From a virus: DNA of 64,000 bases. The stretch lies in the IMG/VR virus record IMGVR_UViG_3300022939_000016, positions 14,730 through 78,729 of that record; one strand, written 5' to 3'. Under the pieces are notes generated by a model. It was not told the origin of the DNA and did no database searches. It worked only from the letters and a program-made list of their open reading frames with translations. Positions 25,103 through 61,400 of the stretch are shown in pieces (position 1 is the stretch's first letter; the number at the start of each line of letters is the position of its first letter). The position numbers were made by a program, and so were the translations under genes.

Positions 25103-25423
25103 ATGTCAGCCTCAAATTTAAGTGATATTACAGATGTTTTTGTTGGCGCATCTGACGACGGAGCCAACGTCACCATTCCAATTTCAAGTTTAGAAAGTTA
25201 CTCGACCGGCAATGATGGCAAAGAGCTTTGCATGAGCCTTCTTTTGGCCGTTAACAAAGCTATAGCTGGCTCAGATCTGACAAAAATGACTACATCTACA
25301 GGTCAAGTTGCGACAGACGCTGACACTTTAACTAAAACTTTTAACTTTTCGGCCCAGCTTGCTTATAGTTTTGGCAATTTGGATATCGAAGCAGAACCAA
25401 CCACTACCACGCCCGCTCCGTAA
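25103..25423 (+). CDS. Small virion protein with C-terminal TTTTPAP tail
   Basis: 106 aa, AAGGAG SD; last gene before the terminator; ends EPTTTTPAP. Confidence 0.6.
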   Translation: MSASNLSDITDVFVGASDDGANVTIPISSLESYSTGNDGKELCMSLLLAVNKAIAGSDLTKMTTSTGQVATDADTLTKTFNFSAQLAYSFGNLDIEAEPTTTTPAP

Positions 25424-25448
25424 CGGTAGATTCTGTGATTTAATCAAT

Positions 25449-25494
25449 AAAAAAAGGCTACCCCAACCAATTGGAAGGGGCAGCCTTCTTTTTT
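25449..25494. terminator. Bidirectional intrinsic terminator
   Basis: A-run, AAGGCTACCCC-aa-CCAATTGG-aa-GGGGCAGCCTT, then a T-rich run; sits exactly between the convergent + and - gene blocks. Confidence 0.85.
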
Positions 25495-25507
25495 AGCCTG
25501 TGATCTT

Positions 25508-25840
25508 TTATTCCATTTGCTTTGACTTTGCGTTCCACTTCATCCATCCACCATCTGGAAGCCAAGTGTCACCATCTTTACGTCGTGGAAACAATCCACC
25601 GCCCTTTTTATGCGCCCCAAAGCCAAGCTTTGCTCCACAAGAACTGCACTTCAATTCATAATACTGATTGTCGTCAACCGTTCTTACAACGTACTGAATA
25701 TCTTCTCCTTTGCACTTTCCGCAGACATCATTTTCAAAGACTTCTTGGAACTTATTTAGTTCCGCGAACAGTTCTCGCTGTGATTCTGCTTCAATTTCTA
25801 CTTGTAGCCTATTGTTTTTAGTTGTATAAGATAGTCTCAT
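25508..25840 (-). CDS. Zinc-ribbon protein
   Basis: 110 aa with CGKC...CSSC; start abuts the stop of the annealing-protein gene. Confidence 0.6.
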   Translation of the reverse strand: MRLSYTTKNNRLQVEIEAESQRELFAELNKFQEVFENDVCGKCKGEDIQYVVRTVDDNQYYELKCSSCGAKLGFGAHKKGGGLFPRRKDGDTWLPDGGWMKWNAKSKQME

Positions 25841-26602
25841 TTATGATCTCCACTCTTCGTTATAGCCAACAATACTTTCCGGTATTGAACCCTTGTCACG
25901 TTGATATTCATTAAGACGATCAATGATATCGCTAGCGACCTTTTTAGAAACCTTGCGGTTTTGATCTACATTAAATACTTCCTTTAACAAACGTCCTCCG
26001 TCCACGTTTAGTTGCTTGCACTTAATATCTATGAAGTTAGACTGTGCATCGCTCATTCTGCCCTGATCGTCGTAGTCTCCACTAGTGCTATTTGTCTGCT
26101 TGGAAATATCACGAACAATTTTGGCAGTATCTTTCTTGGTTAATTCTTCTGCTGCTACACCCTTTATTTTGAGGGCTTTACGTAAAGCTCTAGCCTCCGC
26201 TCTGGTGCTAGCAATGGCAACGGCGTAGGCACAGAACATATCATCAGTGTTGCCCTCCCAAGCGTCAGCAACCTCAGAATATTCAGAACCATTGGCAAAT
26301 CTCACAGTAAATACCACAGTTGCCCTACCGTGATGGTCATCTCTAGTCACTGGAAATACTTGGGTTGGGCCACTATACATAATTTGCCCCAAAACAAGCT
26401 CAGAGACCCTTCTAAGGCCTGTTACTAAGGGATGACCATTCATAAGCTCATCTTCCTCAAATAGGCTCATAGCGTAATCGTGCCACTCTGAGGATAGCAT
26501 ATCTGGAGCATCATTTAAAACAACATTTTTTACTGACGTATCGGTGTTTGACGGTGTACTCAATTCTTCAACTCCTTCAAATAAGTCTTGTTCAACAAAC
26601 AT
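25841..26602 (-). CDS. Rad52/Sak-like single-strand annealing protein (putative)
   Basis: ATVVFTVRF...SEVADA...AIASTRAEARALRKALKI resembles the Rad52/22-type core helix; AGGAGG SD. Confidence 0.55.
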   Translation of the reverse strand: MFVEQDLFEGVEELSTPSNTDTSVKNVVLNDAPDMLSSEWHDYAMSLFEEDELMNGHPLVTGLRRVSELVLGQIMYSGPTQVFPVTRDDHHGRATVVFTVRFANGSEYSEVADAWEGNTDDMFCAYAVAIASTRAEARALRKALKIKGVAAEELTKKDTAKIVRDISKQTNSTSGDYDDQGRMSDAQSNFIDIKCKQLNVDGGRLLKEVFNVDQNRKVSKKVASDIIDRLNEYQRDKGSIPESIVGYNEEWRS

Positions 26603-26614
26603 TTAAACCTCCTT

Positions 26615-27382
26615 TTATGCTTCAATTTCAATATATCTCTTACTTTTGGGTGGAAATTTAATCTCAATATTCTCTAAAATTCCAGCAACTTTGTTCTTCA
26701 GATCTTCTTTTTCGGTCAGCGATAAAGAGTCTGACATATGCTTGACTCTAATGATAACAAAGCCTTTGCTCAAAATCAAGCCCGTTTTATTGCTGTCTGC
26801 CTTAATTTGCTTTTGCAGCTTTTCTTCTCCCCATATTGGAACAAAGTGAGAAGGCCCATCTATCTCTATGATAGCCTTAATCTTTGGGAAAAACATGTCG
26901 ATCTCAAGATTTTGATTAGGTATAAGATTCTTTTTGTGAATTTCTACAGTATGCCCCAGCTTTGTAAATTCGTTTTTCAAAAATTTTTCCAGCTTAGAGC
27001 CTTCCTTTCCGGCGTTCTGTATAGCTTTAATGGCCAGTCTTCTCATGTTTTCTTTTTCTTCCTGTGGCATATTCTTCCATCTATTTTTAGCTTTCTGCAC
27101 ATGGGAATCATATTTATCCTTTGCCATTTTTTTCCATTGATTTTTTTGCGACTTGCTTATTTTTAATCTTTCTTCTTTGCTTCTCTTTCTTCCTTCCGTG
27201 GGTATTTTTGCTTTACCTGTTTCCAGTGCATTTCTTTGCGCCTCGCTTTTACTTTTAAGATTCACTTTATTCTTGATCAGTATCCTTCTTATTTTATTTG
27301 GATAGGTATTCATAATGTCCGCTATTTCATATGTGCTTTTGTTTTCTTTTTCATATAATTTTACTACTTGGATTTCGTTCAT
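26615..27382 (-). CDS. Free-standing Vsr/DUF559-like endonuclease with HTH and NUMOD3-like DNA-binding repeats (homing-endonuclease-like)
   Basis: N-terminal HTH (STYEIADIMNTYPNKIRRIL), basic GRKRSKEERLKISKS repeat, C-terminal SKLE...EIDMF...IIEIDGPSH...GFVIIRV. Confidence 0.7.
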   Translation of the reverse strand: MNEIQVVKLYEKENKSTYEIADIMNTYPNKIRRILIKNKVNLKSKSEAQRNALETGKAKIPTEGRKRSKEERLKISKSQKNQWKKMAKDKYDSHVQKAKNRWKNMPQEEKENMRRLAIKAIQNAGKEGSKLEKFLKNEFTKLGHTVEIHKKNLIPNQNLEIDMFFPKIKAIIEIDGPSHFVPIWGEEKLQKQIKADSNKTGLILSKGFVIIRVKHMSDSLSLTEKEDLKNKVAGILENIEIKFPPKSKRYIEIEA

Positions 27383-27816
27383 GTCAAACCTCTTACTAAA
27401 TTTTCCACACCATCAAAAACTTTGATTTTCACATTATTCCCAATGATTCTTTTTATCCTTTCTTCTATTTCCCCACTTTGTGCTAATATTGTAAAGTCGT
27501 CATTGATGCTCATGAGAAAAACTGGATCTATGTGATTTTCTGTTGTTGGCACATAATACGATTTTATTTCAGATGTTTTATTTGCAATTCTTTTAATCAT
27601 CTTGAGTGATGTATTTAAAACAATTCCACAAAACCCCCACAACTGCTCTATGTTTAAAACGGATGTCTTAAAATCAAAAGACACGGGGCCGGATGTGTCA
27701 TAGAATACAACGGGGTTCTTATCTGTTTTTTCTTGAAGATAATCGCACACTTGTTTCGCTAGCAATCTTTGTGATTCAGATTGCATGTCTACACATATTC
27801 CAATATTTTTATTCAT
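27379..27816 (-). CDS. Hypothetical protein, possibly a detached Rossmann/GT-B-like half
   Basis: ORF track 27379..27846; the likelier start is MNKNIG at 27816 with a GGAG SD. Last gene of the glycosyltransferase cluster. Confidence 0.45.
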   Translation of the reverse strand: MNKNIGICVDMQSESQRLLAKQVCDYLQEKTDKNPVVFYDTSGPVSFDFKTSVLNIEQLWGFCGIVLNTSLKMIKRIANKTSEIKSYYVPTTENHIDPVFLMSINDDFTILAQSGEIEERIKRIIGNNVKIKVFDGVENLVRGLT

Positions 27817-27817
27817 A

Positions 27818-28690
27818 TTATTTCTCCATGCCTTCCAGAAAAACATGCGTTTCTTTTATTTGTGAAAAAATTTGTTTCAGTCTATTTCTTGGCTTATGCC
27901 TGTCTCCTATTTTCAAGCGTACTTTGTCTTCATTATATATCTTTGCTTGATTAAAATCAAACATTGTTTCATCGTCTAGCATCTTTGATAGCGATGACTG
28001 CAAAGCAATAGCCTCTTCTTTATTGTCATTATCAAAATACACCTTGGAGTTTGATAGCATTATTGCGTTAAAAAAACTTTCTGGAATCAAATTGGGTTTA
28101 ATGTTCCTAAAAATAATTTCATGATAATTGTGTAAAATACCAGCCATAGAGAATGGGTTCAAGTTTGAATCTGCCCCAACGTCTTCTGGAGCATTGGAAA
28201 GGAAGTGATAAGAGCCTGAATATTCTTTCTTGTCTTCTTTTTTGTTAATTATTATAGCTTTGTCTATTTTAAAATCTATATCAGACTTTTCAATCTTATC
28301 ATTAGCGCACTGCAAAACATGCTCATAGGGTATTCCGAAATCTTCCTTCTTATGATTTATGTTTGAACTGAATGCCAGCGGGCAATTTATTTCTTTTTGA
28401 TTTAGTATTTCTTTAATTAGTGGAATATGTTTGTCTTCAACTAAGTCTATGTTTATAATGTGCTTAACTTTTTTGGCAGAATTTTGATTGTAGTGTATCA
28501 CGTTTCTCATGTCAGTTCCGATATTCATAATTACAATATCAGGCAATGTTCTGTCATAAACATAATACAAGTTTTCAGTTCCACCATTTACCATTATACA
28601 TTGACAATCCGGTATCTTATTAATTTCTTCGTGTAGATACATTGGCTGAGAAGAGTCTTTTGTGCTATAATTAAATATTACAAAGTTCAC
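27818..28690 (-). CDS. Hypothetical protein, possibly a divergent GT-B-fold protein
   Basis: Likely GTG start at 28690 after an AGGGGG SD. Alpha/beta pattern (PDIVIMN) within the glycosyltransferase cluster. Confidence 0.45.
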   Translation of the reverse strand: MNFVIFNYSTKDSSQPMYLHEEINKIPDCQCIMVNGGTENLYYVYDRTLPDIVIMNIGTDMRNVIHYNQNSAKKVKHIINIDLVEDKHIPLIKEILNQKEINCPLAFSSNINHKKEDFGIPYEHVLQCANDKIEKSDIDFKIDKAIIINKKEDKKEYSGSYHFLSNAPEDVGADSNLNPFSMAGILHNYHEIIFRNIKPNLIPESFFNAIMLSNSKVYFDNDNKEEAIALQSSLSKMLDDETMFDFNQAKIYNEDKVRLKIGDRHKPRNRLKQIFSQIKETHVFLEGMEK

Positions 28691-28703
28691 TTTTATATAC
28701 CCC

Positions 28704-29420
28704 CTAGTGCTTGGCATTGCTTAATTTAGTTATTGATTCGCCGCCTTGGTAAGGTAATATTTTTATCCCCTTTTTAATCATGTGGTTTATTACCTCGTAG
28801 AATATCTTGTTGTTGAAATTACCAGAATTGATGATCTTGTTGAATTCATCATTAATGCTTGATTCTTCCATGTTCAAAACTTCACACCATCCGTCCCCCA
28901 AGCTTCCAAACGACATGTGTTCTATAGTTTTCGTTTCTTTATTTAAATTTACTTTAATGTCTAAGGTTCCGTCGCTAGATGTAACTATATGTTTTTTTTC
29001 TCTCAGCAGACCCTCAAGATCTTTCGGTCTTACTATATAATTACCATTTATTATCAGCGTTCGTTTATTTTTCGTATTATTTATAGCTAATCTAATTGAT
29101 TCACATATTCCAGAATTTTCGTAATTAATGTTTTCTACACACCTGATGTCAACATTCTTGTATTTACTGTATACATACTTCCTAATTCTTTTAGAGTCAT
29201 ATCCTGATGCAATAATTATTTCAAAGTCTTCTATTGCTTGCTGTATAGAATGTATTTGATAATCTATAACTTTCTGGCTGCTGTTTCCGATTGGGATAAA
29301 AGCTGCGTTTCCATAAGATTTCATCTTTGGTATAAAAGAATGATAAACCAGTATTACGGTTATCTTTCTTTTTTTTCTGTTTTTCTTTTTACTTTTTGAT
29401 GTAATGTACTGTATGCTCAT
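28704..29420 (-). CDS. Nucleotidyltransferase (NTP_transferase/LicC-like) fold, catalytic motifs degenerate
   Basis: MKSYG, IDYQI, EIIIASGY and ENINYENSGICESIRLAI match the family, but the LAAGxGxR and PK motifs are replaced. Confidence 0.65.
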   Translation of the reverse strand: MSIQYITSKSKKKNRKKRKITVILVYHSFIPKMKSYGNAAFIPIGNSSQKVIDYQIHSIQQAIEDFEIIIASGYDSKRIRKYVYSKYKNVDIRCVENINYENSGICESIRLAINNTKNKRTLIINGNYIVRPKDLEGLLREKKHIVTSSDGTLDIKVNLNKETKTIEHMSFGSLGDGWCEVLNMEESSINDEFNKIINSGNFNNKIFYEVINHMIKKGIKILPYQGGESITKLSNAKH

Positions 29421-29836
29421 TTTTTTGTAAACTTAATATTGTATTTACTTTCAGAAGGTGAAAACTCTAACGTACTACAAACCAAAGACATTTCTGCCAT
29501 AATTTGTTTAACTAAAATAGCCGGATGAATATTGCTCTTGTCTTTTATGGCCTTGTTAAAATAGTCTTTATCTCTATTTCTTATTGTGTTTTTACAAAGT
29601 AGGTCAATGTCGGTATCTTGTATGAAGCACTCTCCACCCATCCTGAGCTTTTTAGCACAAAAGCTCAAGCACTTAATGAAATCATCATTGTCTACATAAG
29701 AAAGAGCGTCTTCAACGATTATCTGCATAATCGAATCATTAGGAAGTAGGTCTTCAGATATTTCCGCTATCTCTACGGTTTTTATGTTTTCTATTATACT
29801 ACTACTATTTTTTTTGCTGTATATCTGCAATTTCAT
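29417..29836 (-). CDS. Truncated class I SAM-methyltransferase-like protein
   Basis: DSIMQIIVEDALSYV...CAKKLRMGGECFIQDTD matches the C-terminal MTase motifs; no GxG motif I. Likely start MKLQ at 29836. Confidence 0.5.
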   Translation of the reverse strand: MKLQIYSKKNSSSIIENIKTVEIAEISEDLLPNDSIMQIIVEDALSYVDNDDFIKCLSFCAKKLRMGGECFIQDTDIDLLCKNTIRNRDKDYFNKAIKDKSNIHPAILVKQIMAEMSLVCSTLEFSPSESKYNIKFTKK

Positions 29837-29837
29837 T

Positions 29838-30824
29838 TTATAAACTCCGTGTTGCCTCAAAGGTTTGGTTCCAATGTTCTAAAAAGACATCTTCTCTAAA
29901 ATCAGCTAATATTTTTTTTCTGGCGTTGTCGCCCATTTTTCTCGCCAGTTCTGGATCGTCTAAAAGTTGCTGAGTATATTTTTTTAACTCTTTTTCATCA
30001 TTTGATATAAAACCCTCTACCCCATGAGTAATAACTTCCGGTATCATACATGTTGCTTTTGACACAACGGCGCACCCACAAGACATTGCTTCTAACACTG
30101 ATTTTGGTATGGGACTAAACGTTGATGAGTTTAAAAATACGGAATGAGAATTATAAATATCAACTAGCTTCTCGACAGATTCAGTTGGCTCTGACAGACC
30201 GGGATTATCTCCAACCAAGGTAAAATCTAAGCCTTCTACTATATCCTTCCACCCCGTAAAATTCAAGCAATAGTCTCTATTGATAAAATCGTTAGCGACC
30301 GTTAATACTTTATTTTCTCTACTTTGTTTTTGATTGTGAAAAACTTTGGTATCGATAGAATGTTTAATTACTGTTGAGTTATATACAATTCCCCATTCAG
30401 ATCTGGAATATTCGGAAATAAAAACATTAACATCCCCAACCATTTCTCTCATGGCGTTTATTTGTCCACTTGCCACAAGGTTGGGTGTTGGCGTTGTATG
30501 TTCTAGGGAAATAAGGGGTATTTTTAAAATATTTCTTAGCCTATGAGCAATATTAAATTGATCAAATCTACTTTGGGCCAATATTAAATCAAAGCTCAAG
30601 TACGATAACAGCTTGTCCTCTGGCATTATTAGGTAGTTTTCTGGTATGCTTGCATATTCTTTTTTCCACTTCTTTCCCCCTCTTGCGTTTACTGCATAAA
30701 AATTATGTCCCGTTTTGCAAAGTTGGGTTTCATACCTTTCGTGCGTGGGGAAGGTGAGTATATTTAGCTTTCTACTTTTATTTTTATTGTTGGCTTTTTC
30801 TATGATTTCCTTGACTTTATTCAT
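29838..30824 (-). CDS. Glycosyltransferase, GT-B (GT4-like)
   Basis: VFISEYSR, IKHSIDTKVF, SVFLNSSTFSPIPKSVLEAMSCGCAVV, HGVEGFI, MGDNARKKI. Confidence 0.85.
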   Translation of the reverse strand: MNKVKEIIEKANNKNKSRKLNILTFPTHERYETQLCKTGHNFYAVNARGGKKWKKEYASIPENYLIMPEDKLLSYLSFDLILAQSRFDQFNIAHRLRNILKIPLISLEHTTPTPNLVASGQINAMREMVGDVNVFISEYSRSEWGIVYNSTVIKHSIDTKVFHNQKQSRENKVLTVANDFINRDYCLNFTGWKDIVEGLDFTLVGDNPGLSEPTESVEKLVDIYNSHSVFLNSSTFSPIPKSVLEAMSCGCAVVSKATCMIPEVITHGVEGFISNDEKELKKYTQQLLDDPELARKMGDNARKKILADFREDVFLEHWNQTFEATRSL

Positions 30825-31935
30825 TAATAATTTCCTTTATCTTTTCGCCAACCGTTTGTAAATTAAAATTTAAAGCCTGCTTATATCCCTCTTCGTTTTT
30901 CGGTTTATTTTGTTCAAAGTAAAATCGCATAGCTTCTACTGCCATTCTTTCGTCTGGTCTCGCCCAATATTCGTTTCCTGTGAATATGTGTTCAAAGGCA
31001 GCGCCTTCGTTAGAGCAAATCTCTTGGGATCTTTCTATTAAGTATCCCGTATCTCGATTGTCTTCTAAAATATAATCACATGGCCCTCCCCATCTCGTGC
31101 ATATGGGGTGGTTTCCATGACTCATTGCGTCGAATGATGGTATCGACCAAGCCTCTCCGTGAGAAAGATTTACAAAACAATCGCAAAGTTGATGTAAATT
31201 TTTTATCTCATTCTCAGAAAACCTTTCCGCAATAATAATTATATCTCCATAACTATCGTGATCTTTATATATAGCTAAATCTGTTCTTATTTTCTTGCAC
31301 ATTTCTTCCATGTGCATAAAAATTTGTCTTGGGTTGACTCCGAATTTTCCCACCTTTAAAATTAAACTTACATTTTCTTCTGGGCTAAATGCGCTATAAT
31401 AACATTTGATTATGGATTCTATATTTTTTCTTTTAGTTAAATCTGATATCGCATAAAACTTGTACGAAGACGTTGCGTTATATCTTTCAAAATTTACTTC
31501 CATTTTGTTTTCTTGTTTTATGATTTCCGTGTCGCAAGGTATTGGTACAACTTTAACATTTTTAATTCCGGCTTTTACTAAATCTGTTTTGTTTTCATTG
31601 CACGGAACCCAAACCTCATCCATTATTTCAAGATAATTAACCCAAATATTATGCTGTATATTATTAGATTCAAACATTGCATAAGCTATGTTTTTCTTAA
31701 ATTTGTTAGTTCCAACAAGCATGTGTGGCAAAACGTGCTGAATGCAAATATCGATGTCTTTTTCTTCTTTTTGTTCTAGTTCTGACAGCCAATCTGGAAT
31801 AGCACTATCTTTTGTGAGCGTAATATTTCTGCAAACAACTTCTATGCCAGCCTTAGTCATTGAAAGAATGATTCTTTCTGCCGACTTGGCCCAGCCGGTT
31901 CCTTCTTTGTAATGACCTATGTATAGTACTTTCAT
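30817..31935 (-). CDS. Glycosyltransferase, GT-B (GT4-like)
   Basis: DEVWVPC, KRKNIE, CDCFVNLSHGEAWSIPSFDAMSHG. Confidence 0.85.
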   Translation of the reverse strand: MKVLYIGHYKEGTGWAKSAERIILSMTKAGIEVVCRNITLTKDSAIPDWLSELEQKEEKDIDICIQHVLPHMLVGTNKFKKNIAYAMFESNNIQHNIWVNYLEIMDEVWVPCNENKTDLVKAGIKNVKVVPIPCDTEIIKQENKMEVNFERYNATSSYKFYAISDLTKRKNIESIIKCYYSAFSPEENVSLILKVGKFGVNPRQIFMHMEEMCKKIRTDLAIYKDHDSYGDIIIIAERFSENEIKNLHQLCDCFVNLSHGEAWSIPSFDAMSHGNHPICTRWGGPCDYILEDNRDTGYLIERSQEICSNEGAAFEHIFTGNEYWARPDERMAVEAMRFYFEQNKPKNEEGYKQALNFNLQTVGEKIKEIINE

Positions 31936-33590
31936 AAATTAAAAACCTCTGCTCTTTTTGTTTCCCATAGATTTATGTTGTTTCTTTTGTTCACTAGTTG
32001 TTCGTGTGCGTATTTGATTGTAAATGGTTGATTTTCAATTTTTTTAGAGAGAGATACCACTGAATCATCTTCATTAAAAAATGAACCTATAATTGGAGAT
32101 GTACTAAATCCATATATCAAATTATTCAAGATGTTGTCATATTCATAATTGTATTTGTCTTGTGGTTTGCATAAAGCTTTATCAAACAGCCAATTTACCA
32201 CATCTGGGTATGGGACATTGTTAAGTTCTTCTGGTATGTTACGTTCTGGTTTTTGTATATCTACTGGAGATTTCCAAGATTTTTCCAAACTTAAAGTTTC
32301 AACTGAGTCAAAATATGATTCCCAAACCTTTCCGCTAATTTCCCACTGGAATTTTTTCAAAAAGTTTTGCCGCATTTCAAATCCTTCTTTTTTTCTCATA
32401 GCTAATGGTTTTGAGAAAAATTCAGAAAACATTTGTGCGGCAGCGTCATTGTCTGGTACTGCTCTTTCGCATCCGGTTTCCATTTCTTTATAAAGAGACT
32501 TATAAGGTATAGCGTACCCATTTAGCTTTTTAATAACGCTAGACATGGCAGAGTAGTCAATGCTCATAACGGGAATTCCGCACGAAGCCGCCTCTACTTG
32601 TGGTAGCCCAAAGCCTTCCGAGTTTGCGTATTGAACGTATAAATCAAAACAATTCATAATTTTCGCCAAATCTGGATAAGATAGTCCGTTCTTAACATTA
32701 GCCAGTTTAGCGGAAAATTTACCAGTAAAGGGAGATCTTGTTACCGCCCCGTGAAAATGTGAGGCAAAAAATCTACCAGTTTCTAGGCATACATATGTAA
32801 ATAAAACATATGAGTGCAGAGAATGCTCTGATAATATCTCTGGCAAATCCCATCCAGCATCTGGATAGCTTGTGTGGCAATATAGCTTATACTCATTGGG
32901 ATTATTTGATGAGGATAAAAATTTTCTAAAAGCACTGAAGAGATCTGGGTAAAGCTTTCTTCTTTGATTTCTCATTACAGTCCCAATAATTTTTGTATTA
33001 GGATCAATTCCTAAACTTTCTCTTAAAGATTCTTTGTTTTCTATTGGTTTATATGAAAGGTCTGCCGAAGGAGACGCAGTTCCTATATAATTAATTTTAT
33101 TTCTGGATTGCTTTTTAAGCACTTCTCCAGACCAGTCTGAATAACTGAGGCAGGCATCTGCCGCGCTGTACATGTTAATCCACTCTTTTGCTTGTGGGTA
33201 TGCATCTACCGTTGGCATCAAAGCCCACTTAAAGAATTTCCTAAAGGGGGAATTGTGAACAAAGTCTGTCATCCAGAAATCTCTAATATCACAAACAATG
33301 TCTGGTAAAAATTCTAGGCACACCCTTTCAAAAGCAAAGCCTCCAAACTGACTTTTTGGATTACTTTTATATAGATTGGTTAATTCTTGGTTCGAAGGAT
33401 CTGGCATGACACCAAAAAATTTCCAAGGGGCTTTTGATCTGGGGTCTTTGTCCATACCATAAGCAGCTAATTCTGCTATTTCATATTTACCAGTACTATA
33501 CAAATATTTAAGTATTTCCCTTGTGTAAGTAGCGTACCCAGTATTAAGAAAGGTAGCTTCAGAACAGAACAGTATCCTAGTTTTTCTCAT
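31932..33590 (-). CDS. Glycosyltransferase, GT-B (GT4-like)
   Basis: NTGYA, RNQRRK, FDLYVQYANSEGFGLPQVEAASCGIPV (canonical ExFGLxxxEA). Confidence 0.9.
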   Translation of the reverse strand: MRKTRILFCSEATFLNTGYATYTREILKYLYSTGKYEIAELAAYGMDKDPRSKAPWKFFGVMPDPSNQELTNLYKSNPKSQFGGFAFERVCLEFLPDIVCDIRDFWMTDFVHNSPFRKFFKWALMPTVDAYPQAKEWINMYSAADACLSYSDWSGEVLKKQSRNKINYIGTASPSADLSYKPIENKESLRESLGIDPNTKIIGTVMRNQRRKLYPDLFSAFRKFLSSSNNPNEYKLYCHTSYPDAGWDLPEILSEHSLHSYVLFTYVCLETGRFFASHFHGAVTRSPFTGKFSAKLANVKNGLSYPDLAKIMNCFDLYVQYANSEGFGLPQVEAASCGIPVMSIDYSAMSSVIKKLNGYAIPYKSLYKEMETGCERAVPDNDAAAQMFSEFFSKPLAMRKKEGFEMRQNFLKKFQWEISGKVWESYFDSVETLSLEKSWKSPVDIQKPERNIPEELNNVPYPDVVNWLFDKALCKPQDKYNYEYDNILNNLIYGFSTSPIIGSFFNEDDSVVSLSKKIENQPFTIKYAHEQLVNKRNNINLWETKRAEVFNL

Positions 33591-34231
33591 TTTGTTAAAA
33601 ATCCCATTCCCCTTGTATAGTTTTCATACCTCGACATAGCTATTAATTTTCCTTGACAAACACAAGCATATTTATTACCAAGGCTTACCTCTTGTGCTAA
33701 CTGTATATTCATGTTTTCTATTTGATATTGACCCATTCTTAATTCTTTTTTATTTACGACATTGCTTACGTTCTTATACATGTCTTCTGTTGTGTAATAA
33801 AAATCATGCCGTGCGGTTTCTGGCTTCATTATATCTTTAATGCACTCATAAATAATCTCGTTGTCTTTTTCCGCATAAAGCAATGCCTGAAAAATCATAG
33901 GCCCAATAGCAGATATCACACTAAAAAAATTCAAGTTTTTTATGACATATGATGAAATTGGCATTTTGTGTTCAATGTCTATATCGCAGTAGTACCCACC
34001 TCTTTTAAGAAGATAACAATATCTGAAAAAATCCCCCTTGGTACAACCTTTTTCTAGCGTATGAAAAAAATCTACATAAGATTGATCATACTCTTTCTTA
34101 AGAAAGTTTACAACATCTTCGTCTGAAAAAAATAAAACATCCTTTTCAGGATTTAATTTTTTAATATTGCTAATTATATAGCTGGGGATTTTATTGTCTC
34201 TGTAGGTTAATATAATATTATCTGGAATCAT
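33587..34231 (-). CDS. Glycosyltransferase, GT32/OCH1-like (DxD sugar-binding)
   Basis: MIPxxI, KLNP, DFFRYCYLLKRGGYYCDID. Confidence 0.85.
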   Translation of the reverse strand: MIPDNIILTYRDNKIPSYIISNIKKLNPEKDVLFFSDEDVVNFLKKEYDQSYVDFFHTLEKGCTKGDFFRYCYLLKRGGYYCDIDIEHKMPISSYVIKNLNFFSVISAIGPMIFQALLYAEKDNEIIYECIKDIMKPETARHDFYYTTEDMYKNVSNVVNKKELRMGQYQIENMNIQLAQEVSLGNKYACVCQGKLIAMSRYENYTRGMGFLTK

Positions 34232-38959: not shown

Positions 38960-39622
38960 TTAAACCCACCAATCCAAAATCATTTCTGGCAAAGTGTGTG
39001 TGTTTGGAAAATCAAGCCCATCAACTGGGAAAGCAGATGTTTCTTTTTCTGGCTCTTCTGAAAATAGGTTTTTGTTTACATATGTACACTCTAAAACTTG
39101 AGGAATGCCTTCTTCGGTTAGCTTCTTGTGGTTATTTCCGTGCATGTGTATCAAGTAAAAGTATTTATTTATTTTGTCAAAGATTTCTTTTATGTTTTTA
39201 TTTTTCGTAACATGTGGATAAAAATGAAATTCTATAATCATTTGCCAAACGTTAGAGAAAAATCCTTCATAAGAAGATAAGCAATCGAATTCTGACCCTT
39301 CTATGTCCATCTGAATTACTGTTGGTAGTTTATGTTCTATAACGTTCTCTAGATTGTCTACCCTTTCCTTAATGAAGAAAACGTTTTCTTCTTTAGATGC
39401 CAGATCGCAAGATCCTTGAAGGTCATAAATTTTACATTCAAAGTTTTTTCGTTTATTGTGTTTTAAAAAATCTTCTTCAAAGCCGGTTTGATTGCTACAT
39501 CCCAGCGACAACAATCTTTCAACCTGAATTAAATTTCCGGCTACTACATAACCACCATCTCTGTTTGGCCCCAGTCTTATTTTGTTTCTATATGCGTATG
39601 GAATTAGCAATTTTTTTAACAC
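38960..39622 (-). CDS. FkbM-like SAM methyltransferase
   Basis: RLGPNRDGGYVV, LLSLG, QMDIEGSE, QMIIEFH, HMHGNN, LECTYVNK. Confidence 0.8.
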   Translation of the reverse strand: MLKKLLIPYAYRNKIRLGPNRDGGYVVAGNLIQVERLLSLGCSNQTGFEEDFLKHNKRKNFECKIYDLQGSCDLASKEENVFFIKERVDNLENVIEHKLPTVIQMDIEGSEFDCLSSYEGFFSNVWQMIIEFHFYPHVTKNKNIKEIFDKINKYFYLIHMHGNNHKKLTEEGIPQVLECTYVNKNLFSEEPEKETSAFPVDGLDFPNTHTLPEMILDWWV

Positions 39623-39877: not shown

Positions 39878-40735
39878 TCACCAAGCACGACACGACCAAT
39901 AACGAGCTTTCCATTTTGGACCCGGATTATCACAGTTATGTCTAGCCCTGAAGCTTTTTCTTCTCTTTGGATTGTCCTTCTTAATTTCCATATTAGGATC
40001 GCCAAAGTTGACTTTAACTACGTTACCCTTGTCGTTCTTGACATATACGCTCATTTTCTTGGGACCATCTGGAGTTCTAAAAGGCTTATTTAGCTTTACC
40101 TTGCGACCTTGATATTCTACAGCATAAGATTCTTCTTTTTCAGTTTCTCTAACGTCTGTATATTTCATGTAATCGTATGCTGACGCGACATGGGCTTCGG
40201 CTTTAGAGATATTATCTTGAACCCAAGCTTCAATTTCCATGTCTTCTGTCATCATGTTGTAAAGCTCCATAGCTTGCGATGCAATCTTTTTCAATTGAGC
40301 CTTAGACATTCCTCCCTCTCCACCTTCTCCAGACTGGGCTTTTTTCCAAGCTTCTGGATCTGGCCTGTCTTTGTCACCTCTTTTGGCTGGCTTATAGTTT
40401 TTTCCTTCACGTTCTTTCTTTTTGCGAATATTTTCCCAAAGACCGGGACGATCAGCTGCCACATCCCATTCTACCACATCTTCACCAAAGTCAACATATT
40501 CTGCGTCAGGGGGAGCATAAAAATTATTTTCTGTAATTTCTTCTTCGTATCCATATTCATTGAAGTAAAGCTCAAAGTCTGCCTGAGCAACCGTGCTTAA
40601 ATCTTCCGACGCTTTGCTCAAGCATATAGAAGTTCTTTGTTTTGGTGCATATTCTTTTTTCATCGTTTCGTCGCTCATGCACCTAGACAAAAACTCTGTC
40701 CTTTCTTCGCCATTTTTTTTATTTGGAATTGGCAT
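39878..40735 (-). CDS. Modular phage protein with C-terminal DUF6321-like domain (possible head-internal protein)
   Basis: C-terminus KVKLNKPFR...FGDPNM...RKSFRARHNC...ARYWSC. Likely start MPIP at 40735 after GGAG. Confidence 0.6.
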   Translation of the reverse strand: MPIPNKKNGEERTEFLSRCMSDETMKKEYAPKQRTSICLSKASEDLSTVAQADFELYFNEYGYEEEITENNFYAPPDAEYVDFGEDVVEWDVAADRPGLWENIRKKKEREGKNYKPAKRGDKDRPDPEAWKKAQSGEGGEGGMSKAQLKKIASQAMELYNMMTEDMEIEAWVQDNISKAEAHVASAYDYMKYTDVRETEKEESYAVEYQGRKVKLNKPFRTPDGPKKMSVYVKNDKGNVVKVNFGDPNMEIKKDNPKRRKSFRARHNCDNPGPKWKARYWSCRAW

Positions 40736-41594
40736 TCTGCTCTCCATTGGTTTTTATAGCCTGTTTTAGTATCATGTTCAATCTTCTTTCGGGAATTCTA
40801 GTCTTAAAATTTTCATATATTTCCTTAATCATGGGGTGTTCTGGATCTTGTTTAAGCTCCATCCAGCCCAAGAAATAATTCCATATTCTATCTTCTAAGG
40901 ACAGCTTATAAGGCACTCCATCAGGCCTTCCAAATCTATGCAACCATTTAAACTCAGGCAAGCATATTGCCTTGCCTCCATTTTGCCTAAATTTTTCATG
41001 TATGTAGCCCTCTTCTCCCCCGAAGCCTCTGAATTCCTCATTAAATCCTAGCCAGTTTTTTGTTTCGCATGAAAAAGTTCCAAGACCCATCATGGGAATT
41101 TCAAATGGTTTTCCCGACTTAACGCCTTCTTCGTTTTTGGCCCACTGTCCATACATGTCTCCACCCCAAGTTGGCTTAAAGTGGGTGGCAAAGCCCACAT
41201 GGTTATCGTACATCATGGGTCCAGATACAATGTTTTTGCAATCTGTATTTTTCTCATAATAATTCATTAAGGCATCTATACTGCCGACAGGAAATAATAC
41301 ATGACAATCCATCGAGATGCAATATTTCCCTTTTGCGTTTTTAAAGATTTGATTTCTAGATGCTGTTGTTGTTTTTTCAGTATATGGTATATACCTTACC
41401 TTGTTCTTTAGCCAGCCCCCTACAACAGATTGCAGTTGTTTTCCATGCCTTCCTGATGGATTGTTATCAATAATGATTATTTCTGTGGTTGGCTCTCTAG
41501 CAATTTTGTGATATAATAATAATGATTGTATACTAAAGTACACGCCGTGGTAATCATCGTATGTGGCCATCCCAATCGTTAGTTTTTTTTCCAT
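40719..41594 (-). CDS. Glycosyltransferase, GT2 (GT-A)
   Basis: LTIGMATY, EIIIIDN, SRN...AKGKYCISMDCH, GFNEEFRGFGGEE. Confidence 0.85.
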   Translation of the reverse strand: MEKKLTIGMATYDDYHGVYFSIQSLLLYHKIAREPTTEIIIIDNNPSGRHGKQLQSVVGGWLKNKVRYIPYTEKTTTASRNQIFKNAKGKYCISMDCHVLFPVGSIDALMNYYEKNTDCKNIVSGPMMYDNHVGFATHFKPTWGGDMYGQWAKNEEGVKSGKPFEIPMMGLGTFSCETKNWLGFNEEFRGFGGEEGYIHEKFRQNGGKAICLPEFKWLHRFGRPDGVPYKLSLEDRIWNYFLGWMELKQDPEHPMIKEIYENFKTRIPERRLNMILKQAIKTNGEQNANSK

Positions 41595-55553: not shown

Positions 55554-55679
55554 TTATGGTGCTGACGTTGTGGTGGTATAAACGCTTACAATGGTTTCGC
55601 CAATAGCAACTGTCTGCATTTGTGCTTCACCCTTGTAAATTTTTGTGATAGGTGTTTCTCCTAAGTAAATTGGCGGCAT
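55554..55679 (-). CDS. 41-aa fibre-tip/adaptor microprotein with TTTTSAP tail (not in ORF track)
   Basis: MPPIYLGETPITKIYKGEAQMQTVAIGETIVSVYTTTTSAP*; GGGAG SD; fills the gap between two genes. Confidence 0.7.
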   Translation of the reverse strand: MPPIYLGETPITKIYKGEAQMQTVAIGETIVSVYTTTTSAP

Positions 55680-55689
55680 GGTAAGCTCC

Positions 55690-56283
55690 CTATGGTCCAG
55701 TTATTATGTACATGGTGTTGGCATCATAGATTGAAAGATTGTTGTACTCTGTCTGTGTTAAGTTTATCACTCTGGTTGCTTGCCCACTGCCGGTAATGAG
55801 CCAACGATTAATGCTTTTGTCATAAATAAATCTAACGCTATCGCCATTGTACACAAACAATCTTGACCCACTTGGATAGTACAATCGGTTATTAGCATCA
55901 GAACTTAAGCTTTGGTGATCTAGATACATATTGTATGGTCCGTCGTTAACTAGAATAAACTCTGATCTGGCGTAACTAGTGTTTATGCCAGTAATAAAAA
56001 CTGGACCAGTATTTGTGACTCTAATCGTGTCTGTGTTTACGCTTGGCAAGTAATTGTTATAAGTTCCACCAGCAATTTCTAGAGTGTCGGCTTCTACGGT
56101 TTGAACGCTGCCGCTAGACATACCATCTAGATCTGCCCAAGCGTCAACCCCGTTTCCAATTTTTAAAATATCGTTAGTTGTATCGTATCCCGGCTCACCT
56201 TTGCCCAATACGGGATTGGAAGCAGACCAACTGTTGGCTGTTCCTCTTCGAAATTGTATTCTTGTGTCTGTGTAGTCTGCCAT
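55690..56283 (-). CDS. Tail fibre protein, Mtd_N (major tropism determinant N-terminal)-like, paralogue 3
   Basis: RIQFRRGT...NPVLGKGEPGYDT...LKIGNG..AWADL; C-terminal LTQTEYNNL...NTMYII. Confidence 0.75.
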   Translation of the reverse strand: MADYTDTRIQFRRGTANSWSASNPVLGKGEPGYDTTNDILKIGNGVDAWADLDGMSSGSVQTVEADTLEIAGGTYNNYLPSVNTDTIRVTNTGPVFITGINTSYARSEFILVNDGPYNMYLDHQSLSSDANNRLYYPSGSRLFVYNGDSVRFIYDKSINRWLITGSGQATRVINLTQTEYNNLSIYDANTMYIITGP

Positions 56284-56293
56284 TTATGCACCC

Positions 56294-57313
56294 TTACGTT
56301 GTTTTGTAAGCTCTCCATCTGCTTACGGTATTGTCATATACTAACTTAAATCCAGCATGAGGCTCAATGGTTACGTTAGATCCCGTTGTAGTTAAAATGC
56401 TATTTTCGCTTCCTCCAACATCGTTGGTTAAAGTTATATCATTAGCTCCCACGTTATAAATTTCTATTTTACCGTTTCCGTATGTTGCGTCTACGCTGTT
56501 TAATGTTAGAGCCGCCGTCGTTGTTAAGGATATAAAGTCGGCAACAACGTTGGGGGTCCAGTTGCTATAGCTGCCAGACCCAACAGCAATTAAAGTTGAA
56601 GAAAATCTTTGACTTACAAAGCTTAATTGGCCAGCACCATCCGTTTGCAGCAATTGATTAGCAGATCCGTCCGAAGTAGGTAAGGAGTAATCGCCAATCG
56701 TAATCCGCTCACATGTCACATGGTTGGGAACATCATTTGTCCTCATAATACTAGATACAATAATAGAGCCAGAGTTGCCTCCGCTAACCTTACCAACCTT
56801 GCCGACATTTTGCACTAGACTTGATGTTCCAGACGGCCTTGTTGTTGTAAGACCACCCCCACTTTTTACATATAGAACAGACCCAACAGATGGAGTTATT
56901 CCGTCTATGGGATCTGTTGCTATGTGGTTTAATCCACCACCAACAACAACATACCCTTGAGCGTTAATGTCTAAGTCTGTTTTTAGAAGACCAACAGATG
57001 GCATTGTCGTTGGATCAGAAGCATCAGCCGCTGATATCTCTAATGTTTCTGTAGCGCCGACTGTTCCTGTGATATATACTGGAGTACCTTTTTCCAATAG
57101 TCCACCAGATGTGTTTTTTACATGAATCTGAACGTGGTCTGCATATGTAGAACTCAGATTTCTTAGTTCTGTAAATGGTGTTTGACCATCACCAATGACA
57201 AACCTTGTATCATCTATGGCATAGCATGGCTCTCCGCTAGCCAAAATCATATTGGTAGCTTCAAAGTCAGATAGATTTCCCCTGCGCATTTGAAAAACAG
57301 AATGTTGTCTCAT
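56294..57313 (-). CDS. Tail fibre protein, Mtd_N-like, paralogue 2 with extra central domain
   Basis: FQMRRG...ILASGEPCYA...IGDG; VKNTSGG..KGTPVYITG insert; LPTSDGSANQLLQTDGAGQLSF fibre repeat; shared C-terminal domain. Confidence 0.72.
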   Translation of the reverse strand: MRQHSVFQMRRGNLSDFEATNMILASGEPCYAIDDTRFVIGDGQTPFTELRNLSSTYADHVQIHVKNTSGGLLEKGTPVYITGTVGATETLEISAADASDPTTMPSVGLLKTDLDINAQGYVVVGGGLNHIATDPIDGITPSVGSVLYVKSGGGLTTTRPSGTSSLVQNVGKVGKVSGGNSGSIIVSSIMRTNDVPNHVTCERITIGDYSLPTSDGSANQLLQTDGAGQLSFVSQRFSSTLIAVGSGSYSNWTPNVVADFISLTTTAALTLNSVDATYGNGKIEIYNVGANDITLTNDVGGSENSILTTTGSNVTIEPHAGFKLVYDNTVSRWRAYKTT

Positions 57314-57314
57314 T

Positions 57315-57905
57315 TTATGTTACGATATATAATGTATTTGGGTCATATGTAGAAAGTGCGTCGTATTCAACTTGTGTTAATGATAATATTTTTGTCGCTT
57401 GACCAACGCCATACACAAGCCATCTTGAGTATACGTTATCATAAGTTAGAGTAGCACTATCGCCGTTATTTAATACTATATCTCCTTGTGGCATGTTATA
57501 GAATCTATTTTCTGCTGTTGCTGTAGCACTGTCTTGCTTAAGAGTCATGGTGAATGTGCCAAAGTTATTAATGGTAATTTGTTTCTTTGAAACGTGTGAC
57601 TGATCTAGCCCATGAATAATAACGTCGGCGGTGGTTGTTACTCGTAAAACATCTGCAACTTCGCTTGGCTGCCAATTAGCATATGGACCAGCTCCCAAGC
57701 TAAAGTGATTTGCAGTTTGCTCAACAGAAGAGCCTCCAGTCCCAATGGGAGATAACTCAGACCAAGTTTTTGTTCCATCTCCAATTTTAAGCGTATTCGT
57801 GTCGGTGGCTATTGCTGGCTCACCTCTAGCTAAAACCGGATCGTGGGTGTTGAACTGAGTAGAAGTTCCTTTTCTTATTTGTATTCTTGTATAATCTTCA
57901 GACAT
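57315..57905 (-). CDS. Tail fibre protein, Mtd_N-like, paralogue 1
   Basis: RIQIRKGT...PVLARGEPA...LKIGDG..TWSEL; C-terminal LTQVEYDAL...NTLYIV. Confidence 0.75.
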   Translation of the reverse strand: MSEDYTRIQIRKGTSTQFNTHDPVLARGEPAIATDTNTLKIGDGTKTWSELSPIGTGGSSVEQTANHFSLGAGPYANWQPSEVADVLRVTTTADVIIHGLDQSHVSKKQITINNFGTFTMTLKQDSATATAENRFYNMPQGDIVLNNGDSATLTYDNVYSRWLVYGVGQATKILSLTQVEYDALSTYDPNTLYIVT

Positions 57906-57929
57906 GTTTAGCTCCTAGTTTTGATACAT

Positions 57930-57941
57930 AGTATTATACAC
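57930..57941 (-). promoter_or_regulatory. Putative late-promoter motif GTGTATAATACT
   Basis: Intergenic, about 25 nt upstream of the 57905 start (AGGAG SD); identical to 14664-14675. Confidence 0.55.
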
Positions 57942-57955
57942 TGATTTTGGCTTAA

Positions 57956-58444
57956 TTACCATGCAGCAACGGCTACTCTTTTCCACACACCGTCAGAAAC
58001 GCAAACAAGCAACCACTCGCCGTCGTCACTCACAGAAATTTGGCCCTTTTTGCCGGGAGTTGCTGAAACTGCTGGGGCTGGTTCTTCAACTAAGCAAGGC
58101 TTCACGGCTGTTTCGTCTGCTCTAGTAAAGACTAGCTCATCAGCAGCGGTGCTAAGTTTATTATCACCGATAAACATACTATTGCTACTCAGATATAAGT
58201 GTCTGATTTTGTATTCTGCTGAACCCAAATCATATGCTGAGTTGGTATCTGGAATGTAGTGGCCGGATACTGATATATTTGTGTCCGTACACTGAATCTC
58301 TCCTCCAGCCGATTTAATACCAGATGCCAAATTGACAATAGAATCGATAGTAACTTTGGAAGTTGTTGTGCCATCATCCGCAACTACAAACTGAGAAGCT
58401 GTTGCGTTTGCGGCTAAAAGTTCTGAAATTTTTACTGTTGCCAT
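57956..58444 (-). CDS. Short fibre protein with N-terminal KISEL motif
   Basis: MATVKISEL; IPDTNSAYDLGSAEYKIRHLYLS fibre repeat; C-terminal PGKKGQI...LLVCVSDGVWKRVA motif typical of phage fibres. Confidence 0.7.
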   Translation of the reverse strand: MATVKISELLAANATASQFVVADDGTTTSKVTIDSIVNLASGIKSAGGEIQCTDTNISVSGHYIPDTNSAYDLGSAEYKIRHLYLSSNSMFIGDNKLSTAADELVFTRADETAVKPCLVEEPAPAVSATPGKKGQISVSDDGEWLLVCVSDGVWKRVAVAAW

Positions 58445-58489
58445 TTTGTTTACCCTTTTATGGTTAGAAGAATTGAAATTGAAAAAATA

Positions 58490-61400
58490 CTATGGTGCTG
58501 TTGTTGTGGTTGTGGTGGTTGTGGTAGTTGTTGTAACAAACCCATTAACACTAATTATCTCATCATCTTGCGTTGTTATATAATTTCCGGTTTGTGTTGA
58601 GAGAAGGTCTGCTTCTCTAATTTGATAAAGCGCTGCGTATCCACCGAGATCGTTATCAGCGATAGCAAAGTAATTTCCGGTATCATCAATGGCTAATTCT
58701 GTAATATCCTCGCTGGAGCCACATGTAAATTCAGAAATGGACAAAAACATCCCAGTAATTTTGGCATCGCCAGTAATTCGTACATATACATCCGTTACAC
58801 CCGCAGGCTTAATGATTGTGTAAAATTTCGCACTTGGTCCCGGCATACCACAAGGAGTATCCGTAGGGCTGCCTGTTACAATTAGCCCCGTGTCTAACAG
58901 AGAAACTTCACTGTTATTTCCGTCGTAATAAAATACTTCAACTCTTTCTCCGGCCCCGTATGTTTCAAAAATTACTGAATAATCAAGTTGTTCACTTACT
59001 GTGCTATATGGGCCGTGGGTTTGTACGCTGACTCCGGGAGAATCTGAAACGCTAGTACAATCTGATCTATGTTTATAAGTTATTAACACTAACGGTTCTG
59101 GCTTATCTATTGCTAGTTCGTGAGCAGAGTACCACTGGTTATTGTAGTATACAAGATTGTGATTATTTATAAACAGGGAATTGCCATCGCTAGACAGTTT
59201 AGCTCTGGTAATTATATTGGACTCCAATCCTTGCACCGGAACACCCTTTATGCTCCAAGAGGATTCGTCTTCGCTCAGAGTAAAGACTTCTGCCTTACCG
59301 TAAGTTTGTCCGTTTGAGTTTTCTTCTGAGACAATAGCAATTGTTCGCCCATCTGACGAAAGGTCAATGCTGACACCAAATCTTTCGTTTGCGTTAGAGC
59401 CATTGATTATGTTTCCAAGAACATCCCAATTATTGCTTGTTGCATTGTATCGATAGGCTACAACTCTGCCAGCGTTACCTGTTGAAATCTCTTGAATTAA
59501 ATCCTGTTCGGTCGCCTCGTCTGGAACTGTGACAGTTTCGTTAATGCTTTGGCCGGGTGCTGAAATTGCTATAATTTGGCTATTAGCACTAATTGCTACA
59601 TCGTATCCGTTGTTGACATCAACCTTGCTTTCCGTTCCATCTAAGCCCGCAGTTAAATCAATGGGATTTCCCTTGGGTTTCCACAAGGAGCTTTCAGAAC
59701 TTAAAGCTATTTGATCTTCATTCTGTGTAACAATTTCATCTCCGCTCTGTGTTGCGAGTGAGACACCTAACTGATAGACCTGAACCTTTCCAATGTCTTG
59801 TTCGTCTTCATTGTTATCGTAATATGGAGAACCAATTATTATAGTTTCTCCATGTTCGCTTATATCTATTGACTTGCCAAAGCCCTCATCTATTTGTGTT
59901 CCTTCAAGCGTATTTCCTAATTGGTTCCATGATTCTTGTGTTTCATTGTAACCCCAAACTTGCACATATCCTCCAGCTGTTTGTTGGCTGCTCACACCGC
60001 TAGGCGCAGCAATAGCTACAACATTGCCGTTAGCAGTTAAGCTTATAGTTTCTCCATAGTTATCATTGCTTGCGGAACCATAGAGTTCTTGGCCTTTAGC
60101 AATCCAGCTTGTTCCGCTTGGATGATAAATCATAACAGACCCATTAAAATTTGAACCACTGACGCTTTTCTGTGGAGATCCGACTGCTATATTAACGCCG
60201 AGTTGACCATTAGAAATACTTAAGCTTGTTCCCAAATTATCTTCTACGGTAGATCCGTGAAATTCTTGAAGCTTTATAAATTCCTCTGGGGTTTCGGGCG
60301 TATAAGGTTGCGGTTCGTTGAGCAACTTGCAACTGTTTACCACATTGTCTGTTAAAAATTCTCTGGGATCAAAAATGCTGCTCATATCATACACTGTATA
60401 TCCAGAGTATCTGGTTGGCGGCTTGTTTATTGGAGATAGGACAACCAAATCGTCATTATCTATAACGTCTGGAATAGAATACAAAAAGCTGTATATTAGA
60501 CGGGAAGCTTCGCTACTCCATCCCCAGTAATTAAAGTAATACAAAGCATTTGTCCAACTCTTAAAGTTAGGCAAGGAACTAGGTGGCGCTTTAGATGAAG
60601 TAAAAAAGCCATTACCAAAGTTGCTAAATAATTTTCCATTGCAAAATTTAGTCTCTGTTTGATTTAATGTATAGTCATTTCTAAGTGCCTTACGGAAATT
60701 ACAGTTATACCGATAGTCCCACTGCCAACTCCAATCCCACCAATAATAATAATAATCATAATAATTAATATAATAAACGTTATAAGAGGCATCCTGCCCC
60801 CAATATTGATTGCTAAACACTGGCAGTGTTATCGCAAGACCCGCTGGCAATGTAATTTCTTTATCCTCTTTACCAAAATCTTCACCGCCATGATAACTTA
60901 GCTTGCCAAATCTATTGTACTCGTAATTAAAACTTATAGGTTCTTCTGATGTGTTTACTATGGTAAAATATGCCATATTGCCAGTATAATATGGAAATTG
61001 TCTCAAATACGCATTGAATGTGGTTGTTACTTCGCACCCGTCGCAAACCCCCGGATTTGTAAACAGATCGTTATATTCCTTGCATGTAATTACAGCACAG
61101 TCATGGTTTTCTGGCGCTGCGTCAAGCTTGGAATTTAACAGGGTTATGAGTCCACTTGGAACGGTTTTTGCGGAATAAGTTTTTCCAAAATCATCAGCAT
61201 GGCTACCATCGTACAGAAAACTTGGAAGCGGAGGACATTCACAATCTGTGGTTGATGCGTCTGTTGTGACGTTCCATGTTCCTGAAGGTCTTATCGTATT
61301 ATCGTTAGTGCATGATTGACAAGGAAATTCTGTGCAAAGGTCTATTGCTTCTTCGCTTGTGTATACGTCTGGATAGTTATTTACGAGGTAATTGGCGCAA

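Follow-up and report, generated by a model that had tools for sequence, protein, structure and literature searches.

We wondered why three otherwise unrelated phage proteins end in almost the same short run of threonines, and whether the phage that encodes them might attach sugars at these ends. The question is raised by a single viral contig of 78,729 bp from an uncultured marine phage (IMG/VR record IMGVR_UViG_3300022939_000016), of which bases 14730-78729, a stretch of 64,000 nucleotides, form the window analysed here; positions refer to this window unless the contig is named. An earlier note on this DNA had described a C-terminal tail of the form T(n)-x-A-P on non-homologous virion proteins encoded on both strands. 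It had further proposed that five glycosyltransferases (GTs) encoded in the same window constitute one O-glycosylation system directed by this tail. The three C-termini read exactly as claimed:

25103..25423, plus strand: 106-amino-acid (aa) protein, last gene of the tail/baseplate module; tail EP-T4-PAP-stop (EPTTTTPAP) at 25400-25420
55554..55679, minus strand: 41-aa open reading frame (ORF), consisting of a conserved N-terminal module (residues 1-33) and the tail T4-SAP-stop (YTTTTSAP) at 55557-55577
58490..64000, minus strand: last 1836 aa of a giant fibre/adhesin protein whose gene continues beyond the end of the contig; tail V-T12-AP-stop at 58493-58534

The Thr codons in all three tails are mixed (ACC/ACT/ACA/ACG), and no similarity was detectable among the three proteins, in agreement with their description as non-homologous. 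A six-frame scan of the whole contig returned 1197 stop-bounded ORFs of at least 30 aa. Only three of these have an AP C-terminus, and the same three alone match the pattern T{3,}.{0,2}AP$. Thr accounts for 5.8% of residues, so that one would expect about 0.24 runs of four Thr among 21,216 coding residues, and three were observed. No other run of at least four Thr is found in real genes of the contig, and each of the three is located in the last 7-14 residues. The Thr tails are clearly non-random and lie far beyond chance. Two neighbouring genes had been mentioned alongside the tailed ones because their products also end in Pro. Their ITGP and GGTP ends are real, but neither contains a Thr run and one ends differently in an 85%-identical relative, and we therefore rejected them as tags.

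What kind of proteins carry the tails? Two of the three are encoded in fibre or tail modules, and from the position of their genes we infer that the 106-aa and the 41-aa proteins are incorporated into the virion. The 106-aa protein has no Pfam or PHROG match; its AlphaFold2 (AF2) model, built from three sequences, reached a predicted local distance difference test score (pLDDT) of 40 and was unusable, and look-alikes in the Atlas were uninformative. The 41-aa ORF is preceded by a GGAG motif 6 nt upstream of its ATG, and its residues 1-39 share 51% identity with the start of a Cys-rich ORF of ~205 aa that occupies the same slot in the relative G001. These features mark it as a real gene in which the tail has taken the place of the distal part, consistent with its earlier description as a short module plus tag. 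In the giant protein an FG-GAP-type propeller region is followed by a further domain and then by the tail. Distant homologues of this protein bear FG-GAP repeats (PF14312) and all lack the tail; its C-terminal 499 aa have no relative in IMG/VR. The residues directly before the T12 tail (58535-58600) include TQTGNYITTQ, which fits the pattern TQ[ST]GxxIxTQ.

We asked whether the tails are kept in relatives. A homologue of the 106-aa protein with 88% identity ends in EP-T5-SSP-stop and another with 65% identity in EP-T6-AAP-stop, so the length of the Thr run varies between homologues. Comparison of the DNA revealed synonymous differences in the Thr codons between the window and the 88% relative. 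As the tail persists at both distances while its codons drift, selection appears to act on the protein, which is what the mixed codons had been taken to mean. The tagged genes are, all three, lineage-specific accessories located in variable cassettes, and the wider clade members G101, G107, G118 and G122 lack the 106-aa gene. Internal T(n)-[AV]AP linkers are numerous in G101 and G107, the latter of which possesses a tail as well, EP-T7-PEPT-stop. The near-complete genomes G118 and G122 encode the three GT4 genes described below and have no poly-Thr anywhere.

To what extent do such tails occur in other phages? A pattern scan of IMG/VR for T5-A-P-stop found at least 118 loci. Among the matches listed, 76 are plausible in-frame ORF ends belonging to 33 unrelated clusters, many contigs hold two or three differently tagged genes, and none of the loci shows a relationship to the window. 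With T5-P-A-stop, a control of matched composition, the entire collection yielded 85 loci; 32 of them are in-frame ends, drawn from few families, and no contig has more than one tagged gene. Every tagged protein across IMG/VR that could be named by PHROG is a virion protein (major head, head decoration, head closure, major tail, tail fibre or virion structural), which strengthens the notion that the tails belong to virion proteins. Complete tail-bearing genomes encode 2-6 tagged proteins each. The last two residues vary in other phages (AP, TA, TS, GA, ST), indicating that the Thr/Ser run is the common element.

Do these tails travel with glycosyltransferases? In the window, Pfam upheld the assignment of three GT4, one GT32-like and one GT2 gene and of one FkbM gene:

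29838-30824, minus strand: GT4 gene (Glycos_transf_1)
30817-31935, minus strand: GT4 gene (Glycos_transf_1)
31932-33590, minus strand: GT4 gene (Glycos_transf_1), here called GT4c
33587..34231, minus strand: DXD sugar-binding glycosyltransferase (Gly_transf_sug, PF04488; GT32-like)
38960..39622, minus strand: FkbM-family methyltransferase (PF05050)
40719..41594, minus strand: GT2 glycosyltransferase (GT-A fold; Glycos_transf_2, PF00535), 291 aa, single domain

GT4 (PF00534) was present in 17 of 49 tail-bearing records and in 10 of the 12 that are at least 90% complete, compared with 2/50 control records overall and 0/20 at the same completeness; one of the two control matches comes from a relative of a tagged phage. 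Both near-complete tail-bearing records that lack GT4 possess a GT2. Taking GT4 and/or GT2 together, the comparison at this completeness is 12/12 tail-bearing versus 2/20 control records (p = 4e-7), although the 12 complete genomes represent about five lineages and the test is thus less independent than the raw counts. Tails and phage GTs thus do co-occur. The GTs of other tail-bearing phages are often fusions, either GT4+GT9 or methyltransferase+GT4+GT9. In six tail-bearing loci the GT4+GT9 (heptosyltransferase-like) fusions measure 671-690 aa, and the methyltransferase+GT4+GT9 fusions of the same set 1153-1165 aa. The methyltransferase fusions echo the FkbM gene of the window.

Among the five GTs of the window, only GT2 tracks poly-Thr, and outside the clade it does so by gene neighbourhood. 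We surveyed the best 80 IMG/VR loci of the GT2 family, 60 of which lie outside the clade. A poly-Thr ORF was located within 10 kb in 39 of these 60 loci, against a background of 2/79 (p = 8e-17). In 29 of 75 family loci (all those with a tabulated match start) the poly-Thr ORF lies immediately upstream of the GT2 gene, and the 24 poly-Thr ORFs beside or near GT2 genes that were clustered make up 14 unrelated clusters. The great majority of family members are viral. A GT2 homologue with 39% identity in the unrelated record G097 is encoded 5.3 kb from a major tail protein with a T8-PA-stop tail; a search for relatives of this tail protein returned itself alone. Judged by this distribution, GT2 40719-41594 is the best candidate for the poly-Thr-directed enzyme. 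Glyco_transf_7C (PF02709) is present in some look-alike clusters, and the GT2 of the window shows PF00535 only.

Two further ORFs were noticed next to genes of this family. At six loci the ORF directly upstream of the GT2 homologue belongs to one protein family with a T12 run followed by a conserved Cys-containing knob that ends in IYPTTILNCNPYCNKLGY before the stop codon. In the window, a 289-aa ORF (39878-40747) is located between the GT2 and FkbM genes. It is kept in 49/79 related loci, and its Cys-rich C-terminus matches two unrelated high-GC viral loci.

What, then, do the remaining enzymes do? The GT genes are embedded within the following module, in which the DnaQ gene sits between the two halves of the split DnaE:

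minus strand: replication/nucleotide-metabolism module encoding class II ribonucleotide reductase (RNR), dUTPase, PhoH, RecA, DnaB, primase, dNMP kinase, PD-(D/E)XK nuclease, split DnaE, DnaQ and SSB

In 69-79 of 79 related loci the GT4 trio keeps its synteny with SSB, split DnaE and DnaQ (29838-38888), and by its distribution it appears to have a clade-wide role that is independent of the tails. The genomes behind these loci reach up to 167 kb. GT4c belongs to a family with more than 609 representatives at E <= 1e-30 and at least 549 IMG/VR loci. Its AF2 model (pLDDT 94) has its best PDB fold match in the chlorovirus NY-2A GT 3oy2, followed by generic retaining GT4 enzymes; the top Foldseek matches were 3oy2, GlgM, SPS and BshA, and GtfA was not among the matches listed. 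Four near-invariant cysteines of the family (C268, C271, C286 and C289) resemble a zinc ribbon set into the C-terminal Rossmann domain. The family also has a helical C-terminal extension, and tandem double-length forms of ~900-950 aa are common among relatives. Homologues of the DXD transferase were found in 4/79 related loci and in G001, and G101, G107, G118 and G122 have none; on this distribution it is best regarded as an accessory gene of the window's sublineage. FkbM is present in 21/47 clade records, including the poly-Thr-free G118, and is a possible sugar O-methyltransferase.

We lean, if only slightly, towards reading the T(n)-x-A-P tails as O-glycan acceptor tags, short and mucin-like, on distal tail or fibre proteins; of the explanations considered, this one is supported best. 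Our data show the tails themselves, their conservation, their confinement to C-termini and their link, by statistics and by gene neighbourhood, with phage GTs, whereas the attachment of sugar, the enzyme that initiates and the purpose of the glycan are inferred. The three tailed proteins would be synthesised in the cytoplasm late in infection. A soluble phage-encoded GT, most likely GT2, would then glycosylate the Thr hydroxyls of the exposed and disordered C-terminal tail, and the DXD transferase, the FkbM methyltransferase and possibly the GT4 enzymes might extend or methylate the glycan. The outcome would be a small glycan tuft on the fibre tips, with the 41-aa protein, a docking module plus a tail, as a minimal glycan carrier. 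Such a system is narrower than the one first proposed, which our data support in part: GT2 is the prime candidate, with the DXD transferase and FkbM as possible accessory enzymes.

A number of observations weigh against this reading. There is no direct evidence of an attached sugar. The GT4 trio is clade-universal and also present in complete relatives without poly-Thr (G118, G122), suggesting a different or a broader role for the larger part of the cluster. Among 80 loci with GT4c homologues, a Thr tail is found within 10 kb in the close relative only. GT4c was rejected as the tag-specific enzyme because 78 of the 79 loci other than the close relative have no nearby Thr tail and because the trio occurs in complete poly-Thr-free relatives. 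The claim that all five GTs form one tag-directed system therefore does not hold, the trio being tied to the replication genes instead. For GT2, an orthologue is present in 10/10 poly-Thr-rich genomes of the clade and no genome without GT2 is poly-Thr-rich, but this association (Fisher p = 2e-5) reduces to a single joint change of GT2 and poly-Thr on the GT4c tree, that is, to one contrast, and we discarded it as independent evidence. A profile of GT2 searched against the PDB finds the teichoic-acid transferase TarP as best match (E = 3.7e-6), and the matches to GalNAc-T10 (E = 0.12) and GalNAc-T7 (E = 0.27) are not significant. BLASTP comparison of the window's GTs with gp108-110 of mycobacteriophage Che8 gave no match better than E = 0.03. 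The control scan contained a family of T5-P-A-tailed ORFs, at seven loci, that ends in VVAALKTTTTTPA before the stop codon; it occurs in records of up to 100% completeness that have no PF00534 or PF00535 match, so that these GT families are not a prerequisite for short Thr tails. Finally, a capsid gene is absent from the contig, which is partial (52% complete by CheckV).

How else might the tails have arisen? They could be unmodified mucin-like linker stubs, single T(n)-[AVP]-AP units that were left behind when modular Cys-rich adhesins lost or swapped a distal domain, serving as a hydrophilic flexible bristle to which the GTs are unrelated. The 41-aa ORF lends itself to this idea, as it resembles a longer Cys-rich protein of which only the N-terminal module has been kept and a tail has taken the place of the remainder; all three tagged genes lie within variable cassettes, and the many internal T(n)-AAP/VAP linkers of G101 and G107 would be the source type. 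A stub is harder to reconcile with the 106-aa protein, which retains its tail at 65% identity, and with the tails on capsid, tail-tube and head-closure proteins, which have no distal domain to lose. It also leaves the GT co-occurrence and the adjacency of GT2-family genes unexplained. We regard this account as rather unlikely, and since Thr linkers are themselves classic O-glycan acceptors it partly merges with the idea of an acceptor tag. A different proposal concerns the enzymes: the GT cluster might modify phage DNA or host envelope glycans, for anti-restriction or superinfection exclusion, and coincide with the tails because of a shared host or habitat. The location of the GT genes inside a replication module (SSB, split DnaE, DnaQ, dNMP kinase, dUTPase, RNR) and the conservation of the GT4 trio with this module throughout the clade, regardless of poly-Thr, fit well with it, and phage GT-A DNA glycosyltransferases likewise resemble TarP (bioRxiv 10.1101/2023.12.21.572611). 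The known entry into pyrimidine glycosylation requires a ThyA homologue, or a C5-methyltransferase together with a TET-type dioxygenase (bioRxiv 10.1101/2023.12.21.572611; PMC13326640). Neither PF00303 (ThyA) nor PF12851 (TET/JBP) matched the contig or G107, G118 and G122, which are 94-100% complete, and G001 and G101 were equally negative, the PF12851 half of this result being weak as that family matched no control genome. Moreover, the fold of GT4c is that of retaining GT4 enzymes and of the chlorovirus GT rather than of T4 beta-GT, and the proposal would not account for the 14 unrelated contexts in which a GT2-family gene directly follows a poly-Thr ORF. Overall we consider this proposal improbable, with the qualification that the unexplained place of the GT4 trio inside the replication module keeps DNA modification alive for those three genes.

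Two further explanations bear on the acceptor tag itself. The tails might be glycosylated or otherwise modified by host enzymes instead of phage GTs. Virions assemble in the cytoplasm, whereas general bacterial O-glycosylation systems work in the periplasm, and the strong link of the tails with phage-encoded GTs also speaks for the phage's own enzymes. Host-dependent modification of phage tail proteins does have a precedent in their methylation by the host enzyme MepM (PMC13445384). Nevertheless, a host origin of the modification seems very improbable to us. It has also to be considered that the tail could be a translational device, a terminal Pro before the stop slowing termination for the sake of coupling or of pausing for assembly. 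C-terminal Pro does slow translation termination, as known from the SsrA-tagging literature, and five fibre-region genes have a Pro C-terminus. This leaves the Thr run unexplained, and the Thr/Ser tails of other phages end in TA, TS, GA or ST, so that we find the translational explanation scarcely credible.

If the acceptor-tag reading is followed further, a more general and decidedly tentative idea emerges. A portable mucin tag, a terminal or linker Thr run plus x-A-P, may be common to many lineages of tailed phages and be read by a mostly viral GT2 family acting as a minimal polypeptide O-glycosyltransferase with the Pro +3 rule of animal mucins. Sugar-coated virions would then be widespread among environmental phages, built on a modular principle and not peculiar to mycobacteriophages, and the sole purpose of small proteins like the 41-aa one would be to bring glycan onto the fibre. 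Among the papers searched we found none on poly-Thr tails of phage virion proteins beyond the mycobacteriophage precedent discussed below. If these tails are glycosylated, the glycosylation of phage virions would no longer be confined to a few mycobacteriophages but would reach large uncultured aquatic groups; a simple tag would reveal it in genome sequences, and one particular enzyme family could be named as the candidate. Such tufts of glycan, on fibres as well as capsids, would influence adsorption, particle stability and stickiness to mucus or marine gels, and would also alter recognition by grazers or immune systems. A transferable short tag with a soluble transferase would be useful for the glyco-engineering of phage particles and of proteins in bacteria.

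The remainder of the window provides the setting of these genes. Both ends of the contig break open giant ORFs, and megablast of 14.5 kb against GenBank phages gave no match.

1-25423, plus strand: C-terminus of the tape measure, then large tail, baseplate and fibre proteins with almost no family matches
25447..25490, no strand assigned: GC-rich hairpin with A and T runs at its flanks, read from the sequence, between the convergent modules
58444-55318, minus strand: fibre cluster with Mtd_N-type genes; small membrane proteins are also encoded on this strand
55690-56283, 56294-57313 and 57315-57905, minus strand: three Mtd_N-type tail-fibre genes (Pfam Mtd_N and Phage_tail_C, PHROG tail-fibre families)

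The hairpin lies just past the 106-aa gene and is likely a bidirectional terminator. The three Mtd_N-type genes (55690..57905) are located between the 41-aa ORF and the giant protein and have no Thr tails. Six unnamed ORFs at 25841-29860 had no Pfam or NCBIfam match, and a PDB sequence search with three of them found none either. On the contig, 6766-7611 encodes a candidate major tail protein (phrog_1407, E = 1.9e-5) ending in SQSTSWTSYSSWY before the stop codon. This end is Ser/Thr-rich with no Thr run and could be a second kind of acceptor. At the start of the contig (1-600, 5' of the window) the first 100 bases are repeated 297 bases downstream. This 297-bp tandem repeat lies in an open 1530-aa ORF and is probably the cause of the assembly break.

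How does the proposed system compare with those already known? Phage DNA glycosylation (T4 alpha/beta-GT; 5hmC, 5hmU and 5hoC glycans) likewise employs GT-A and GT-B enzymes encoded near nucleotide-metabolism genes, but the window differs in having neither a ThyA homologue nor a TET match, the latter with the weakness of the PF12851 search given above. A parallel in mechanism is offered by GtfA/GtfB, a soluble GT4 enzyme that O-glycosylates the long Ser/Thr runs of serine-rich-repeat adhesins in the cytoplasm before export. The window encodes GT4 enzymes as well, and GtfA (5e9t, 4pqg) was the only match of GT4c in the PDB sequence search, albeit a weak one (E = 2e-4 over a 65-residue stretch). 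Unlike GtfA/GtfB, the GT4 trio does not track poly-Thr, and the fold search places generic GT4 enzymes and the chlorovirus GT first. The GtfA-specific architecture was not found in GT4, TIGR02918 scoring 32.5 bits against a cut-off of 574.6.

The nearest phage precedent comes from mycobacteriophages Che8, Corndog and Myrna, in which, according to later accounts of the original work, glycans are carried on the C-termini of capsid and tail-tube proteins (Freeman 2023, Cell Host Microbe 31:1216, via PMC12619734, PMC12363180 and PMC11256854). As far as these accounts describe the Che8 system, it shares with the window the phage-encoded GTs (five by Pfam in the window) and a short C-terminal motif common to unrelated proteins (three in the window). 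The motifs differ: in Che8 the capsid ends in TGS and the tail tube in DGS, giving G-S in both, as opposed to a Thr run plus x-A-P. The carriers are capsid and tail tube there and fibre-type or accessory proteins here, and Che8-type phages are actinobacteriophages whereas the window stems from a marine phage. Glycosylation is proven in the former and suggested by sequence in the latter.

The shape of the acceptor recalls mucin-type O-glycosylation by the GalNAc-transferases (GT27), which have a GT-A fold and act on Thr-rich, Pro-punctuated acceptors; the candidate enzyme of the window is a GT-A/GT2 protein. In contrast to the GalNAc-transferases, this GT2 has no C-terminal ricin-type lectin domain, comprises only 291 aa and would be cytoplasmic rather than Golgi-resident. 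Pro at +3 or at +1/+3 is the classic acceptor preference of polypeptide GalNAc-transferases, and the tails of the window place Pro at +3 of a Thr (T-S-A-P, T-T-A-P) or at +1/+3 (T-P-A-P).

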